This document shows positions 2,910 through 53,673 of a stretch of 64,000 nt of DNA, one piece after another. Position numbers and translations under genes: made by a program. Under the pieces are notes generated by a model. That model did no database searches. It saw nothing but the letters and a program-made list of their open reading frames with translations, and had not been told where the DNA came from. Origin of the DNA: a virus; IMG/VR virus record IMGVR_UViG_3300011116_000796, positions 55,655 through 119,654 of that record; one strand, 5' to 3'. The first letter of the stretch is position 1. Each line of letters starts with the position of its first letter.

Positions 2910-4840
2910 TGTCTAATACCCCTATCCGTGAACTTGACTTTGATCAGATAAAGCAAAGCCTTAAAGATTATTTGCGTGGTCAAGATAAGTTCAAAGACTA
3001 CGACTTCGAAGGGTCTACACTCAACATTCTATTGGATTTGCTTGCATATAATACGCATTACCAGGCGTTTTATGCAAACATGGTCGCAAATGAAGCCTTT
3101 CTTGATTCGGCTGTTGTGAGAAACTCTGTCGTTTCTTTGGCAAAACATCTTAACTATAGACCAAGATCGAAGAAGTCCGCACGAATTGCAGTAAATGTTG
3201 AGTTATCACCGATCACATCAGGAAGATCGCAGCCTGCTGGAGTGACTGTCGCATCTGGTAAAGAATATGTAAATGCAGGGACTACATTTTTTGCAAGAAA
3301 TTCACAGGGGCAAAATGTATCGTTTGTGACTCTAGACAATTTTAGAGTTCGGGTTTTTGGAGGGAGATTTGTTGCTTCTGATGTCATCCTACATGAGGGG
3401 GTTCTTAAGACATCTTCGTACATAGTTAATGCAAAGGATACACTACAGAGATTTGTGATTGAGGATCAAAACATTGATATAGATACGCTTTCTGTCAGAG
3501 TACAGAGGTCGGTGACAGACACAGAGGGGTTTGATGAAATCTGGGCGAGATCGACAGACATCAATACTCTTAATGGGAGTTCAAGGGTCTTCTTTGTACA
3601 AGAGGCAGAGAACGGTAAGTGGGAAATATATTTCGGTGATGGTATAGTAGGAAAGGCATTGGAAAACGGAAATTTAATTCAAATGGTGTATCTCTCCACA
3701 AATGGAGAAAGTGGAAATGGAATCGGATCTACAGACTCTACCTCTTCAAGAGTTTTCACATCAAACAATCCTGAGTTTTTGGTGGAAGTGATCAAGGACT
3801 CAAGGGGAATTCCACAGCCATCTTACGGTGGAGCAGAACCCGAGAGTACAGAATCTATTAAGTTTCATGCTCCTAAAAACTATCAGGCACAAGACCGAGC
3901 GGTAACATCAGAAGATTATCTCTCCATTCTCGCAAGAGAGTATTCCATCAGATCAGAATCTTTCTTGGTTTGGGGAGGAGAGGAAAACGACCCACCACAA
4001 TACGGAAAGGTCTTCATCTCAATCAAACCCAAAAATGCGGGTCGGCTTACTATTACAGAAAAGCAAGCAATTTCTAGGACTGTTTTAGGTCAAAGGAACT
4101 TGGTTACTGTCACCCCCGAAATAGTAGATCCAGATTTGACATATATCAATACTGATGTATCGGTATTTTATGATCCACAGTTGACAACAGCAACTCCAGA
4201 CGTTTTGATATCGGGGATCTCCTCTAAAATTGTTGAATATGGAGATACATTCTTAGATCAGTTTGGAAAGAATTTCAGGCAATCTAAGTTCAGTTCTTTC
4301 ATAGACGCTCTCGACCCGTCCATCAATAGTAGCAATGTCAAGTTGAAATTGGAAAAGCGTATAGAGCCACAATTTGAAAGGACTTTGCCCTACACAGTTA
4401 AGTTTGATAATGCAGTCTTTCATCCGGTTGATGGATACCCTCCCGTACTTAGTTCATCATCATTCTATTACAGAGATTTAACATCGACTGCTGTAAATAA
4501 ACCAACTGTTATTGCATATTTGGATGATGATGGATATGGTAATATTCGAATCTACAAAAAGGTGGGCGAGGAGAGAATTTATCTAGTTAGTAGAGCAGGA
4601 ACAATTAACTATACAAATGGCCTGATTCAACTCAAATCTTTCTCTCCTTTGGGTATTCCTGATCCAGATGGTTCAGTGGAGATCAAAATTATCATTGTTC
4701 CTGATCGGGGAGATGTTTTGGTTCGTAGAAATCAAGTTTTGTTAATCAACGACAGAGAAATAAATGTTGTTGTCGTGCCTGAAAAAACAGTTATTGATAG
4801 AAATGCAAGCGATAGTGGATTCCCATTTAGGACAAACTAA
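2909..4840 (+). CDS. gp6: Baseplate wedge subunit gp6
   Basis: LDFDQIK..LKDYL...FKDYDFEGS.L..LLDLLAYNTHY, QDRAVT..DY, WGGEENDPPQYGKVFISIKP. Confidence 0.95.
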   Translation: MSNTPIRELDFDQIKQSLKDYLRGQDKFKDYDFEGSTLNILLDLLAYNTHYQAFYANMVANEAFLDSAVVRNSVVSLAKHLNYRPRSKKSARIAVNVELSPITSGRSQPAGVTVASGKEYVNAGTTFFARNSQGQNVSFVTLDNFRVRVFGGRFVASDVILHEGVLKTSSYIVNAKDTLQRFVIEDQNIDIDTLSVRVQRSVTDTEGFDEIWARSTDINTLNGSSRVFFVQEAENGKWEIYFGDGIVGKALENGNLIQMVYLSTNGESGNGIGSTDSTSSRVFTSNNPEFLVEVIKDSRGIPQPSYGGAEPESTESIKFHAPKNYQAQDRAVTSEDYLSILAREYSIRSESFLVWGGEENDPPQYGKVFISIKPKNAGRLTITEKQAISRTVLGQRNLVTVTPEIVDPDLTYINTDVSVFYDPQLTTATPDVLISGISSKIVEYGDTFLDQFGKNFRQSKFSSFIDALDPSINSSNVKLKLEKRIEPQFERTLPYTVKFDNAVFHPVDGYPPVLSSSSFYYRDLTSTAVNKPTVIAYLDDDGYGNIRIYKKVGEERIYLVSRAGTINYTNGLIQLKSFSPLGIPDPDGSVEIKIIIVPDRGDVLVRRNQVLLINDREINVVVVPEKTVIDRNASDSGFPFRTN

Positions 4841-49803: not shown

Positions 49804-50517
49804 TTACGAATTGTCCAATAACTCTTCTGCCTCCTGAATACTGTCCACCTTCCGAATGAACAGAGGAGTACCCTCCCCCACCCATGCTCCAATGGTATTG
49901 GTGTGTAGGTACTCATAAGCCTCGTCAATAGTCATACCGTCACGCTCGACCAGAACGCTTGCACACTTATCAAGATCATATACGATAATTGGCACATTGT
50001 TATCGATCCTAGACCCCACTCCAATGACGCAGTCTTCGAACCCATCCGCCTTCATAGTTCGGGGTTCAGGGCGACTCTGTCTAGCCTCTGGCTTGCCCTC
50101 TGTACCTTCCCCCTCTTGCCACCCGCTCCGATCAGGGATCGTGGAGATCGCCTCCTGGGGGCTTTTCTGATGCATAGTCCAATAACACCTTTCCGCATCC
50201 CTCTTGGTGGTGTATGGGCGGCTGACATTCCCGTTGATATCGGTCCACACCCACCCCATATGGCGGGGACTGTATCGGACCACAGGATCCTTCTCATCAG
50301 GATTCATGCATTGGCGGTCCATAACTTCCATGTGGTTTGCAATAATCTGATCCGCCTCCATCTCACTCGGAAAGTGCTTCGTAATGCGTCTTGCAGCCTC
50401 ACGAACCGCTTTGGGAATTCCCTTACGGATGTAATTTGGGTTGAATGGGCTGAACAGGGAATACATGAAATTTCGGGCGTTATTCATGGCAACAAATTGC
50501 TCGTATGGAAGTGTCAT
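49804..50517 (-). CDS. Two-domain hypothetical protein (BPSL0761-like N-terminus plus conserved phage domain)
   Basis: MTLPYE...ARNF...PK.VR..ARR..KHFP; C-terminal ADGF.D..IG...VYD..K....L...GM..DEA.EY...N..GAWVGE.TP; start placed at the ATG downstream of the promoter. Confidence 0.75.
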   Translation of the reverse strand: MTLPYEQFVAMNNARNFMYSLFSPFNPNYIRKGIPKAVREAARRITKHFPSEMEADQIIANHMEVMDRQCMNPDEKDPVVRYSPRHMGWVWTDINGNVSRPYTTKRDAERCYWTMHQKSPQEAISTIPDRSGWQEGEGTEGKPEARQSRPEPRTMKADGFEDCVIGVGSRIDNNVPIIVYDLDKCASVLVERDGMTIDEAYEYLHTNTIGAWVGEGTPLFIRKVDSIQEAEELLDNS

Positions 50518-50524
50518 AAAAAGT

Positions 50525-50552
50525 ATTATAAGCGTTTTATGTGAGAAGTCAA
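50525..50552 (-). promoter_or_regulatory. Sigma70-type promoter
   Basis: TTGACT-16 nt-TATAAT on - strand, 7 nt before ATG at 50517. Confidence 0.8.
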
Positions 50553-50588
50553 TAAATTTCGAAAAGAAAATTCGGAAAAATAGAAACA

Positions 50589-50699: not shown

Positions 50700-52208
50700 A
50701 TGGCAAACTTTTACTGGCAAGGACAAAGTATAACCGGAATTGCCAAATTCGATTGGAACACTAAAGAAAATTGGAAGCAAGTTGAATTCAACTCAAGCGG
50801 AACCGGATCAAGTTTTGGTTGGCGGTATGTAACCGCAAACTATGCACCTGGCCCAAATGATGCCGCAATCTTCGGAGCAATTAACGAAGGTGGTGGTGCA
50901 CTTCAGCCACTTAATGCACTTTCGCCGTGCCTATTTGGAGGATATTCAGGAAATGTTGCTTCAGGAAGTTGGTTAGGTGCAGTAATAGAAACTGGAACCA
51001 CTGCACAAAGCAGTCTTATCACTATAGTTACAAACCTATCAAGAGAAACTGGAGGCAACAGATATCCGTTCACATTATTCGGAACCGGTCTGACGGCAGA
51101 AACTCTGAATTATCTGTACACGGCTGAAGGCATTAGTGGTGTATCTGATGCAGACCTTGTCCCGTGGGCAGCAGGATCACTTCCGAACTCCGGACTTACT
51201 AGTGGTGGAGTTTCTGGCGGTCAAGCAATGGTCGCAAGATCAAGATTCCCATTGAAACTAAAAGTTAGTGATTCAATCATGCTGCACCACGATGGAGACA
51301 AGTTGATTAAATTTGTTGGTGTCAAATCACTTGTAGATGTTTATGGGACTACAGGCAACACAAAATATGTAAGGACTAATGTTATCCAAAATGGTAAGGG
51401 AACAGTTTCAATCTCTTCAGGTGTCTATCAGAACATTTACAACAATGGTGTTGGTTCTTCTATGTACTTGACGGGACTTACATGTGGAACTTTCCGTACA
51501 GTTCCAACTTCTGTTTTTGTAGAACCTAATTGCAGATTCAATCGTGTTGAGGTTGGAGGACAATACACCAATCCAATTTGGTTCGGTGGATCATTAGACA
51601 CCGCATCAGTTGTTAATGAACTCGGTATACCAGGATTGGGTACAACAGGTGTTAACCAAGCAGAATTGGAATCTGGAATTGATATTCAACCGATCTATCA
51701 GTGGTGGACTGGTGGTGGTCTGCAAAATCAACCCTACTTTGTATTCGGTATTCCCGGCCCAACTTCACAGCAAGCAGTTGCGAAGAGAATTAGAGTAGCG
51801 TCAGTTGATGGTGGTGCATCAGGATCTTCAACGGGAACCGCTGCTTGGAATTCAACTTGGAATCTGACATTCGGGGGTGGTGCAAGTGCAGCAACCATTG
51901 AAACCACTAGTGCAATTGTCAGAGTCCAAAATTCCATCAACACCGCAACAACTGTGAATATTGGTACCTTGTTCATGGACAAATCATCTGTACTGGATCT
52001 AGCATCAGCAGGAGAATTTGATAATTGGTTCTTTGGATCATTGAGTGGAAACTCGATTCAGGGTGGTATCATTTTCAGAGATGAAAAATCCACGGTCAAA
52101 GGAAGCCAAGGTATCAGACTATTCAATACTCAAGTTGTGCTTGGTAATAGATTTGATGTCCGTGGCGGTAAACCAACAGCAACTCTCTCTGAGGGTGGTA
52201 TGATTTGA
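50700..52208 (+). CDS. Gly/Ser/Thr-rich beta-strand protein, probable late virion/fibre-like protein
   Basis: 502 aa; N-terminal YWQG.....DW....NW and P...D.A.F motif reminiscent of autotransporter/G8-like beta-helix starts; CTAAATA box at 50589; dense G-x-T/S motifs. Confidence 0.75.
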   Translation: MANFYWQGQSITGIAKFDWNTKENWKQVEFNSSGTGSSFGWRYVTANYAPGPNDAAIFGAINEGGGALQPLNALSPCLFGGYSGNVASGSWLGAVIETGTTAQSSLITIVTNLSRETGGNRYPFTLFGTGLTAETLNYLYTAEGISGVSDADLVPWAAGSLPNSGLTSGGVSGGQAMVARSRFPLKLKVSDSIMLHHDGDKLIKFVGVKSLVDVYGTTGNTKYVRTNVIQNGKGTVSISSGVYQNIYNNGVGSSMYLTGLTCGTFRTVPTSVFVEPNCRFNRVEVGGQYTNPIWFGGSLDTASVVNELGIPGLGTTGVNQAELESGIDIQPIYQWWTGGGLQNQPYFVFGIPGPTSQQAVAKRIRVASVDGGASGSSTGTAAWNSTWNLTFGGGASAATIETTSAIVRVQNSINTATTVNIGTLFMDKSSVLDLASAGEFDNWFFGSLSGNSIQGGIIFRDEKSTVKGSQGIRLFNTQVVLGNRFDVRGGKPTATLSEGGMI

Positions 52209-52239
52209 TAGGATACTAGTTGACAGACAATCAGAATTA

Positions 52240-52273
52240 CAGCACCCCCCCCCGAAAGGGGGGGTTGTTGTTT
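52240..52273 (+). terminator. Rho-independent terminator
   Basis: C-run, gaaa loop, G7 stem then ttgttgttt after the 50700 gene. Confidence 0.8.
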
Positions 52274-52275
52274 AT

Positions 52276-52315
52276 AAAGCAAAACCCCCTGCACATTTCC
52301 GGTTGTGCAGGGGGT
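52276..52315 (-). terminator. Rho-independent terminator of candidate ncRNA
   Basis: ACCCCCTGCACA-accggaaa-TGTGCAGGGGGT followed by TTTGCTTT on - strand. Confidence 0.85.
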
Positions 52316-52574
52316 CGCTGAGTTCGCACTCTCTATTATTAAGGCTCTTGACCCTACATGTGCGAAATGCGGGGCTGACTGATGCGGCTGTACATCCGCA
52401 TTTTCGTCGGCACTAAAAGATCGTCCGGACAATCCTTTAATACCGTCAGGTGCCTCTTGACGGACTAGTCCGTCAACGCTTCGTGCCTATTGGCCTATTT
52501 TACTTCGCACGAACGAAGGGGTGTGACTAGCCTTGGCGAACCTCGGCAGGGGCGAACCCTTTTCGTCACACCCC
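52276..52574 (-). ncRNA. Candidate structured non-coding RNA (~300 nt), family unknown
   Basis: Bounded by TTGACG-17-TATACT promoter and an intrinsic terminator; at least six hairpins, two UUCG loops, G-U pairs only on the - strand; no credible ORF. Confidence 0.7.
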
Positions 52575-52575
52575 A

Positions 52576-52604
52576 AGTATATCCCTTTTCCTACCCTCCG
52601 TCAA
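52576..52604 (-). promoter_or_regulatory. Sigma70-type promoter driving candidate ncRNA
   Basis: TTGACG-17 nt-TATACT on - strand. Confidence 0.8.
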
Positions 52605-52641
52605 TACCTAACATCAAAGTTTTTCGACTTTGAGTTATCGG

Positions 52642-53673
52642 TCACTCTACCAAAGCAGGCTCGGATCCCTGCATCTGCTTGGTGAGCAAAGCCATGTCGT
52701 ACTTGTACATGATCTTGGCAAGGAGTTTCATATCCACCTTTGGTTCCCATCCAAGCACACGCTTGGCCTTTGATGGATCGCCAAGAAGGAACGGAACTTC
52801 GTTCGGACGGAAGTACTTGGGGTCAATGACAACATGCTTGTTCCAATCAAGCCCTGCCTCTTCAAAGACTTCGGTCAAGAACTCACGAACGCTGTGAGTC
52901 TTCTGCGTTGCAACCACATAATCATCTCCCTGTGGTTGTTGCAGCATAAGCCACATAGCCTCCACATAGTCCTCTGCATAACCCCAATCACGAAGTGCGT
53001 CAAGGTTTCCAAGGCGCAGTTCAGACTGCAATCCCATCTTGATTCTTGCAGCAGCCATCGTAATCTTACGAGTCACGAATGTCTCACCACGACGAGGACT
53101 TTCATGATTGAAAAGAATGCCTGACGATGCGTGAAGACCATATGCATTTCGATACACACGGGTCATGTGATGAGCATGAAGTTTTGCAACAGCATATGGA
53201 GACACAGGCATCATGATGCTATTCTCGTTATATCCGACCGAAGGATCATAGTCCTTGCTGTCGCCAAACATCTCAGATGAGGATGCCTGATAGAAACGAG
53301 TCTTGGGGCTGAAAGTGCGAATTGCTTCAAGAATCTTTAATGTTCCCGATGCAATACCATCACATGTGTACTCGGGAATCTCAAACGATACCGCAACATG
53401 TGACTGTGCAGCAAGGTTGTAGAATTCATCAGGCTTATGTGTCATGATGACATGAGCGACAGCAGACCCATCAGTCAGATCAAAGTGATGCATCTTAAAT
53501 CTAGGATGATTGAAAAGGTGATCGATTCTTGTCGTACTGATAGATGATGTACGACGCTTGAGACCGATGACCTTATATCCCTTTGCCAAGAGCATGTCGG
53601 CAAGATATGAACCATCTTGACCATTTACGCCCGTGATAACAGCAGTCTTTCCATTCCAAATTTCATCTTGCAT
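52642..53673 (-). CDS. gmd: GDP-mannose 4,6-dehydratase
   Basis: ITGVNGQDGSYLA, YNLAAQSHV..SF..PEYT, FYQASSSEMFG, SPYAVAK, GILFNHESPRRGETFVTRKIT, LGNLDA.RDWG. Confidence 0.97.
   Translation of the reverse strand: MQDEIWNGKTAVITGVNGQDGSYLADMLLAKGYKVIGLKRRTSSISTTRIDHLFNHPRFKMHHFDLTDGSAVAHVIMTHKPDEFYNLAAQSHVAVSFEIPEYTCDGIASGTLKILEAIRTFSPKTRFYQASSSEMFGDSKDYDPSVGYNENSIMMPVSPYAVAKLHAHHMTRVYRNAYGLHASSGILFNHESPRRGETFVTRKITMAAARIKMGLQSELRLGNLDALRDWGYAEDYVEAMWLMLQQPQGDDYVVATQKTHSVREFLTEVFEEAGLDWNKHVVIDPKYFRPNEVPFLLGDPSKAKRVLGWEPKVDMKLLAKIMYKYDMALLTKQMQGSEPALVE

Follow-up and report, generated by a model that had tools for sequence, protein, structure and literature searches.

The final 64 kb of an IMG/VR virus record of 119,654 bp (IMGVR_UViG_3300011116_000796), referred to here as the window, contain a segment of about 300 nt (positions 52276-52604) between the gene gmd and a convergent open reading frame (ORF). 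What kind of element is it? The original prediction, made from the letters alone, described a highly structured RNA gene on the minus strand, with its own promoter and terminator and belonging to no known RNA class. The analysis reported here supports a stand-alone, structured, non-coding RNA gene that is conserved in related phages and lies behind a host-type (early-type) promoter. It further places a known self-cleaving ribozyme, the pistol, in the middle of the gene, and we consider it probable that this is an early RNA gene whose pistol cuts its own transcript into two small RNAs. The elements concerned, in order of transcription, are as follows:

52599..52604, minus strand: -35 hexamer TTGACG, located by a consensus scan; TTGACN is kept in 17 of 18 locus variants.
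52576..52581, minus strand: -10 hexamer TATACT, separated by 6 nt (TGGGGT) from the first junction base; located by consensus scan and conservation.
52523..52569, minus strand: 47-nt three-way junction, defined by folds, pair counts and a covariance model (R1).
52451..52518, minus strand: pistol self-cleaving ribozyme, with P1 CUUC/GAAG, pseudoknot UUCGUGC/GCACGAA, P2 GCC/GGC and P3 UUGACGGA/UCCGUCAA.
52455..52456, minus strand: predicted scissile bond G52456/A52455, in the two nucleotides that join P3 to the 3' strand of P2 (model positions 63-64).
52317..52450, minus strand: 3' domain of about 135 nt with four hairpins, found by folding the segments between conserved anchors.
52277..52316, minus strand: intrinsic terminator (stem 52316-52283 and a U-rich tail), located by a terminator scan.

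An Rfam search of the whole window with cmscan at gathering thresholds returned a single match, the pistol ribozyme RF02679, at 52518..52451. The match is specific to the minus strand, scored 43.8 bits against a cut-off of 34.5 and extends over the full model (positions 1-68), covering 68 of the approximately 293 nt of the putative transcript. A strong match to a known Rfam family had been named beforehand as a result that would speak against novelty, and for the central part of the gene this is what was found. No Rfam family matched the 5' junction or the 3' domain at E <= 10, and for these two parts the absence of a known class holds. All of the elements described in the original prediction are in the sequence of the minus strand; two of its hairpins, UUCGUGC/GCACGAA and the longer one with a CUAG loop, are not plain hairpins but the pseudoknot and P3 (UUGACGGA-CUAG-UCCGUCAA) of the pistol.

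The match extends to the details of the fold. In the class, the loop of P1 pairs over 6-7 bp with the internal loop that separates P2 from P3. In all eight pistol variants whose helices were checked by script, P1 has 4 bp and the pseudoknot has seven standard pairs; P3 has eight pairs across the variants (with one A.C in locus L092) and P2 has three standard pairs, or four in L093. By count, 25 of the 32 upper-case consensus positions are identical in the window, and two of the seven differences form a compensating pair in the pseudoknot. The catalytic residues described for the class in PMC6154101 are, in env25 numbering, purine 32, the G33-C41 pair, G40 and G42. With the offset between env25 and model numbering inferred from the G-C pair in the structure line of the model, the corresponding bases were found at model positions 31 (G), 32-40 (G-C), 39 (G, the general base of the class) and 41 (G). 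The scissile position was taken from the alignment to the Rfam model, using the cleavage position given for the class in PMC4604425. The scissile junction is 2 nt long, GA or AU, in 8/8 variants.

Relatives of the gene were collected with the gmd protein (80 loci), with junction patterns in viral contigs (8 + 9 stretches) and with a junction pattern in metagenome contigs (10 stretches). They comprise 18 distinct locus variants including the window, some of which differ only outside the RNA. A distant-mode blastn search of 52230-52650 against 50,697 deposited phage records gave no match. Eight further loci, nine with the window, carry the pistol above its cut-off at 35.6-48 bits: L002, L003 and L004 among 20 loci scanned, and L092, L093, L096, L099 and L100 among another eight, of which L086, L090 and L097 have none. 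A search of viral contigs with a pattern for this pistol subtype found only four contigs, all of them already in the set. The strongest divergence is that of L093, in which both sides have changed in two pseudoknot pairs, two P2 pairs and seven of the eight P3 pairs relative to the window (11 compensatory pairs), with all helices intact. Judged by the covariance model and this covariation, the central 68 nt are a member of the pistol family.

Comparison of the loci revealed a modular architecture. The window, L002, L092 and L100 are about 95% identical over approximately 400 nt and contain the promoter, junction, pistol, 3' domain and terminator. The same order is found in L003/L088, L004/L096 and L099, which are about 74% identical. 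In L093 the junction is followed by a divergent pistol, by a domain of about 190 nt unlike that of the window and by a terminator, while L007/L091 have the junction, a plain hairpin, a reduced 3' domain and a terminator without a ribozyme. In L005, L006/L095, L008, L086 and L097 the promoter and junction are followed within 3-15 nt by the terminator. Since these last relatives consist of the junction and terminator only, the junction is the constant core of the family, and the pistol and 3' domain are optional. L090 contains a diverged junction and a terminator behind an unrelated ORF, with no promoter match. In this locus (4540-4700, minus strand, on a 40-kb phage contig), the closing stem is AUCCGAC/GUCGGAU, arm A is GGA-UUCG-UCC and the upstream ORF is small. 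The context of L090 indicates that the junction motif has moved between contexts. The family is narrow, with about a dozen freshwater T4-like contigs, and its carriers are uncultured freshwater T4-like phages.

The position of gmd relative to the RNA also varies. The stop codon of gmd lies within the closing stem of the junction in L005-L008, L086, L093 and L097. In the window, the sequence after the gmd stop (52630-52645) reads GAGTGACCGATAAC, which resembles the junction start GTGTGACGAAAAG. From its sequence, the layout of the window looks like a later separation of gene and RNA, in which the promoter is now the RNA's own. Between gmd and the promoter of the RNA, the L003 (1046-1085) and L004 (4062-4101) group has an additional hairpin resembling a terminator, which is missing from the window.

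The constant part of the family, the 47-nt junction, is a small motif without an Rfam class. It consists of a closing stem GUGAC/GUCAC, J1 GAAAA, arm A GGG-UUCG-CCC, J2 CU, arm B GCCGAGG-UUCG-CCAAGGC and J3 UA, and its consensus is GUGAC-GAAAR-[GGG(G) UUCG CCC(Y)]-(C)U-[7-bp arm, UUCG loop]-UA-GUCAC. No variation was seen in the junction bases (GAAA, U and UA) or in either UUCG loop, in contrast to the helices; in 9/12 sequences the two central pairs of arm B are not formed. Over 12 sequences, 87% of the pair cells are paired, compared with at most 52% in all slid controls, and five of the 16 pairs show changes on both sides, a number reached by one of 500 shuffles. Conservation is higher in the junction than in gmd next to it. 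Covariance model R1, built for the junction, found one copy in the genome of the window (75.8 bits) and one copy each in four of five related virus records, and gave no match in 73 other gmd loci. A junction pattern searched in 185,579 prokaryote genomes had two matches (L101 and L102), which were taken as chance, being without the fold and not found by R1.

Several other identities for the RNA or its parts were considered and set aside. Sub-threshold Rfam matches (mir-5045, mir-1759, mir-27, mir-1497, TCV_Pr, snoU61, HCV_5BSL1, rnk_pseudo, ClpQY_promoter, sR23 and RFPL3-AS1_2) were rejected, as they lie far under the cut-offs and belong mostly to families of eukaryotes or eukaryotic viruses. 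The snoU61 match prompted consideration of a C/D-box or k-turn, which was dropped because GUGAC is engaged in Watson-Crick pairs, with covariation in L090. Similarly, the UGA within GUGAC was considered as a site of stop-codon recoding or of a role like that of a selenocysteine insertion sequence, and this was dropped since the gmd stop of the window lies 70 nt upstream of the junction.

The promoter, TTGACG-17-TATACT at 52604..52576 on the minus strand, is of the sigma70 type and matches the consensus at 10 of 12 positions. Taken alone it is at chance level, as a scan of 51500-53500 found three promoter-like sites compared with 3.0 +/- 1.9 in shuffled sequences. Its conservation is another matter: TTGACN-16/17-TAnnnT, followed by exactly 6 nt and GTGAC, is present in 17/18 distinct locus variants, with L090 as the exception. 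Five sequence types carry this promoter in intergenic DNA; in the L005 type it lies within the last gmd codons, and the UGA stop of gmd is the UGA of GUGAC. At the other end, the terminator stem (52316..52283) has 13 pairs, eight of them G-C, and a T-rich tail follows. The terminator scan found six terminator-like sites compared with 1.8 +/- 1.4 in shuffles. The stem is conserved, and RNAalifold reported two basal pairs with changes on both sides. Thus, the claim that the gene has its own promoter and terminator stands.

The start of transcription can be placed by comparison with the next gene downstream, MTLPYEQF..., in which TTGACT-16-TATAAT is followed by 7 nt and then ATG (50517-50561, minus strand). 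Polymerases on this phage appear from this sequence layout to start about 7 nt after the -10 hexamer, and on the basis of the 7-nt spacing the +1 of the RNA gene was put at G52569. With this predicted +1, the transcript would open directly with the conserved 5-bp closing stem. The closing stem can reach 10 bp in the window and its closest relatives (52570-52574 with 52518-52522), and the original prediction had cautioned that a standard +1 near 52569 would trim this first helix. As only the inner 5 bp (GUGAC/GUCAC) are conserved in the relatives, and these begin at 52569, that worry is resolved.

The high degree of structure ascribed to the segment was confirmed by folding. For the minus strand of 52276-52575 the predicted folding energy is -127.6 kcal/mol (z = -7.04, with none of 200 shuffles as good), and the minimum-free-energy folds contain the three-way junction, UUGACGGA/UCCGUCAA, the CCGG-looped hairpin, AUGCGG/CCGCAU and UUCGCAC/GUGCGAA; the plus strand has z = -5.53. 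Likewise, the segment is non-coding, with stops in all three frames and no frame kept across seven variants, and a peptide-coding RNA was dropped on this ground. ARAGORN found no transfer RNA (tRNA) or transfer-messenger RNA (tmRNA) genes in the whole 64-kb window. A tmRNA-like tag end at UAAUAAUAG was also dropped, its frame having only four codons in addition to the negative ARAGORN result. The segment had been called richer in GC than its flanks, and its GC content is indeed higher (0.505-0.525), but the excess is small against the low-coordinate flank (0.40-0.46) and gmd (0.47-0.50).

In the 3' domain, the fold is kept better than the sequence. It is marked by the anchors CUGACG, AAAAU, UCAGUCAG (52382-52375) and AAGAGCC (52349-52343). 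Hairpin 1 (52439-52414) has the CCGG loop and hairpin 2 occupies 52401-52382; hairpin 3 has the loop UUCGCAC (52366-52360) and hairpin 4 the loop GUGCGAA (52329-52323), and these two loops are mutually complementary. Thus, UUCGCAC/GUGCGAA, which had been listed as a helix of its own, is present as a loop-loop pairing of the third hairpin with the fourth. MAFFT misaligned hairpins 1 and 2 between the two sequence groups, and the segments between anchors were therefore folded instead of counting covariation. All four segments fold as hairpins in 5/5 variants despite 44-63% identity between groups; between the window and L004 they are identical at 18/41, 11/20, 14/27 and 20/32 aligned columns. 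RNAalifold reported three pairs with both sides changed in the third hairpin. The loop-loop pairing in L003 is CUCGCAC/GUGCGAG, which is one compensatory change, and L004 and L099 keep five pairs. The homologues with covariation that the original prediction had called for thus exist, with compensatory changes in the pistol, the junction (where they are thin), the third 3' hairpin and the base of the terminator.

A pattern search for the 3' domain found no true copies outside the same contigs. Four pattern matches (L108-L111) were taken as chance, having no likeness beyond the pattern and sequence that by eye is seemingly coding-like. Complementarity between the RNA and its own 119.7-kb genome was limited to 11-12-mers, by estimate about the number expected by chance, and gave no target.

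These features suggest the following course of events. Host RNA polymerase would start at about G52569 and stop near 52277, giving a primary transcript of approximately 293 nt. During transcription, the pistol would fold (P1, pseudoknot, P2 and P3) and cut the backbone between G52456 and A52455. Pistol cleavage depends on Mg2+ and leaves 2',3'-cyclic phosphate and 5'-hydroxyl ends. The predicted 5' product (52569-52456, about 114 nt) would carry a triphosphate end, the junction, the ribozyme and a 2',3'-cyclic phosphate end, with the triphosphate end buried in a helix. The predicted 3' product (52455 to about 52277, approximately 179 nt) would have a 5'-hydroxyl end, the four hairpins and the terminator; the GGCA strand of P2, once released, may find a new partner in the 3' domain, forming GGCAC/GUGCC or pairing its GGC with the GCC of AAGAGCC. 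By what is established about RNA decay, the ends of the two products would be poor substrates for 5'-end-dependent and 3'-exonucleolytic decay. The pistol would in this manner be a built-in maturation device that yields two presumably stable, end-protected small RNAs from one early promoter. As to what these would do in trans, the original prediction had suggested a possible protein sponge, antitoxin mimic or anti-defence RNA. Our guess is that they are protein-binding or regulatory RNAs acting early in infection; we lean this way because neither the twin loops nor the junction bases vary, the copy number is one per genome and no base-pairing target was found in the phage.

Several observations weigh against this reading. 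The scissile step is G-A here, while the consensus is G-U, P2 has only three standard pairs, and the outermost model pair is G.A in 7/8 variants. The pistol of L092 has the A.C mismatch in P3 and scores just 35.6 bits, and the competing helix GGCAC/GUGCC could trap an uncut fold. In the class as described in PMC4604425, the GU scissile dinucleotide is modestly conserved and the junction length strictly conserved; the G-A step therefore does not exclude activity. L007, with a junction and 3' domain but without a ribozyme, implies that processing is not indispensable. The covariation in the junction is sparse, with four of the five compensatory pairs contributed by L090 and the fifth by L005, and the other junction sequences are at least 90% identical. 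Metatranscriptome runs X1 and X2, which contained 0.09 and 0.07 of the sampled words, were also searched through Logan contigs, which carry no strand information. The one X1 contig on 52100-53000 spans 52583-52748, from the end of gmd to the promoter spacer. The one X2 contig spans 52248-52385 with five mismatches, a loose end like that of an L092-type relative, and runs past both terminators. Neither displays a start, an end or a cut, and they favour neither expression nor its absence.

The alternative that survives best is that the structures belong to the gmd mRNA as its 3' untranslated end, in which the junction and terminator stabilise or end the message and the pistol trims its 3' end. 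The gmd frame crosses the promoter-like sequence in the loci noted above whose UGA falls inside the GUGAC stem, and the junction of L090, where no promoter was matched, also begins at the stop of an unrelated upstream ORF. In the window itself, no terminator-like site lies between the gmd stop (52642) and the RNA, which means that gmd read-through would include the RNA. However, where the promoter is intergenic (window, L002, L092, L100 and L003/L004/L099) it is free of coding constraint, yet TTGACN-16/17-TATACT and the 6-nt spacing are kept, and the L003/L004 group has a separate terminator-like hairpin between gmd and the RNA promoter. We regard this account as unlikely if taken alone. It is compatible with transcription from the RNA's own promoter, and the RNA may be made both ways.

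We give a similarly small chance to a second view, in which the 47-nt junction, with its invariant junction bases, its twin G-UUCG-C loops and its position at the predicted +1, is a new functional RNA class (perhaps a decoy that binds a host or defence protein, perhaps a new small fold that is catalytic or binds a ligand) and the real conserved payload, which the pistol detaches from a fast-evolving second RNA. If true, this would be among the first concrete roles for a pistol ribozyme.

Less likely still is a junction that serves as a cis leader controlling terminator read-through into the next gene, whether as a riboswitch, an attenuator or a nascent-RNA antiterminator, for which phage HK022 put provides the comparison. 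The junction amounts to two hairpins 1-2 nt apart directly after the promoter, the G-run of arm A could, as read from the sequence, pair with the C-run of the terminator, and in L005, L006 and L097 the promoter, junction and terminator are followed within about 50 nt by a ribosome-binding site and the MTLPYEQ... gene on the same strand. Only in these three loci is the RNA a same-strand 5' leader of the kind expected of a riboswitch or attenuator. In the window, L002, L004, L008, L086 and L092 the next gene is convergent, which leaves nothing to switch on, and in L003, L007, L093 and L099 it has its own promoter. Moreover, the long forms place about 250 nt, ribozyme included, between junction and terminator, and some eight unpaired junction bases with two tetraloops leave little room for a ligand pocket.

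It is very improbable that the junction is itself a new small catalytic or ligand-binding class next to the pistol. The invariant junction bases and UUCG loops amid variable helices are what such a class might show, and the order of strands around the junction is that of the hammerhead. The hammerhead has a seven-nucleotide core strand between stems I and II and GAAA between stems II and III. In the junction GAAA is present, but the strand that would match the seven-nucleotide segment is UA only, and no Rfam hammerhead or other ribozyme family matched at E <= 10; a hammerhead identity was therefore rejected. The motif is also very small. Self-cleaving ribozyme classes are described as tending to cluster (PMC4604425, PMC6765202), whereas a terminator downstream speaks against self-cleavage, following the reasoning given for similar motifs by Weinberg 2017 (PMC5737381). 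Finally, we give hardly any credence to chance structure without function in an intergenic spacer, which could appeal to the chance-level promoter scan and the well-folding plus strand (z = -5.5) but is contradicted by a strand-specific pistol above cut-off in nine loci, the compensatory changes, the conserved promoter position and a junction more conserved than gmd.

The remaining features of the neighbourhood are the following:

52642-53673, minus strand, on the upstream side of the RNA gene: gmd, GDP-mannose 4,6-dehydratase (Pfam E = 6e-123).
50700-52208, plus strand: ORF of 502 aa, convergent with the RNA gene and without a Pfam match.
52244-52265, called as a plus-strand terminator for the 502-aa gene: a second G/C-rich hairpin (C run, GAAA, G run).
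50517, minus strand: probable ATG of the MTLPYEQF... gene, the next downstream, preferred over the listed GTG 50589 from the layout of promoter and start.

The hairpin at 52244-52265 lies 18 nt past the RNA gene's own terminator, so that the two convergent units end back to back. The 502-aa gene is a present/absent cassette adjoining the RNA gene: recognisable homologues of its 3' end lie downstream of the RNA in L002, L004, L008, L086 and L092, and the gene is absent at that position in L003, L005-L007, L093, L097 and L099. The layout of the MTLPYEQF... gene is that of a leaderless-type mRNA, and the same layout precedes its homologues in L003, L007, L093 and L099. The window also encodes a T4-type major capsid protein, scaffold protein and tail sheath. 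The capsid protein shares 64% identity with its counterpart in Pelagibacter phage Mosig and about 61% with those in Methylophilales phage Melnitz and several Synechococcus myoviruses; from these identities and the T4-type genes, the source is judged to be an uncultured, distant T4-like myovirus.

A pistol in the middle of an RNA that runs from promoter to terminator, with natural variants with and without it, offers a clean testable case of a ribozyme as a maturation device for small RNAs. The junction is a compact motif and a candidate addition to RNA family libraries, although with a family of about a dozen contigs the practical reach is limited. A full-text literature search found no paper on this arrangement; copies may sit in published pistol alignments.

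Some small RNAs derived from 3' untranslated regions, such as MicL and DapZ, have their promoter in the 3' end of the upstream gene. The L005 type resembles these in having its promoter in the last gmd codons and a terminator common to gene and RNA, whereas the promoter of the window is intergenic. For the minimal form of junction and terminator, the nearest analogues are the motifs drum, skipping-rope, DUF3800-I and FuFi-1, described in PMC5737381 as small, highly conserved structured motifs without an assigned function, followed directly by a Rho-independent terminator and rarely located in 5' untranslated regions. The junction differs from these in that it matches none of them in sequence or model, is smaller (47 nt), occurs in T4-like phage contigs of one narrow group and starts where transcription is predicted to start.

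The roles of most genomically encoded self-cleaving ribozymes, those of bacteria and phages included, are undeciphered and mostly hypothetical, according to a 2019 review (PMC6765202). The hepatitis delta virus-like theta ribozymes beside phage tRNAs (PMC10879173) provide a parallel, in that there too a small self-cleaving ribozyme stands next to a structured non-coding RNA in a phage genome and plausibly sets the end of that RNA. The present ribozyme differs in being of the pistol class and in having neighbours that are not tRNAs; since a pistol remains almost entirely with the upstream product when it cuts, the end that it would set is the 5' end of the downstream RNA. According to PMC4604425, pistol ribozymes often occur close to phage genes and in environmental DNA. 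The central domain agrees with RF02679 as described in PMC4604425 and PMC6154101 in P1, the pseudoknot with the P1 loop, P2, P3, the 2-nt scissile junction, the core bases and the association with phages. It departs from the usual pistol in its surroundings, which are two RNA modules of a stand-alone non-coding RNA gene and not protein-coding genes. What the locus offers is thus a ribozyme of a known class in a new setting, accompanied by a small 5' motif that is unclassified and by a 3' domain that varies.

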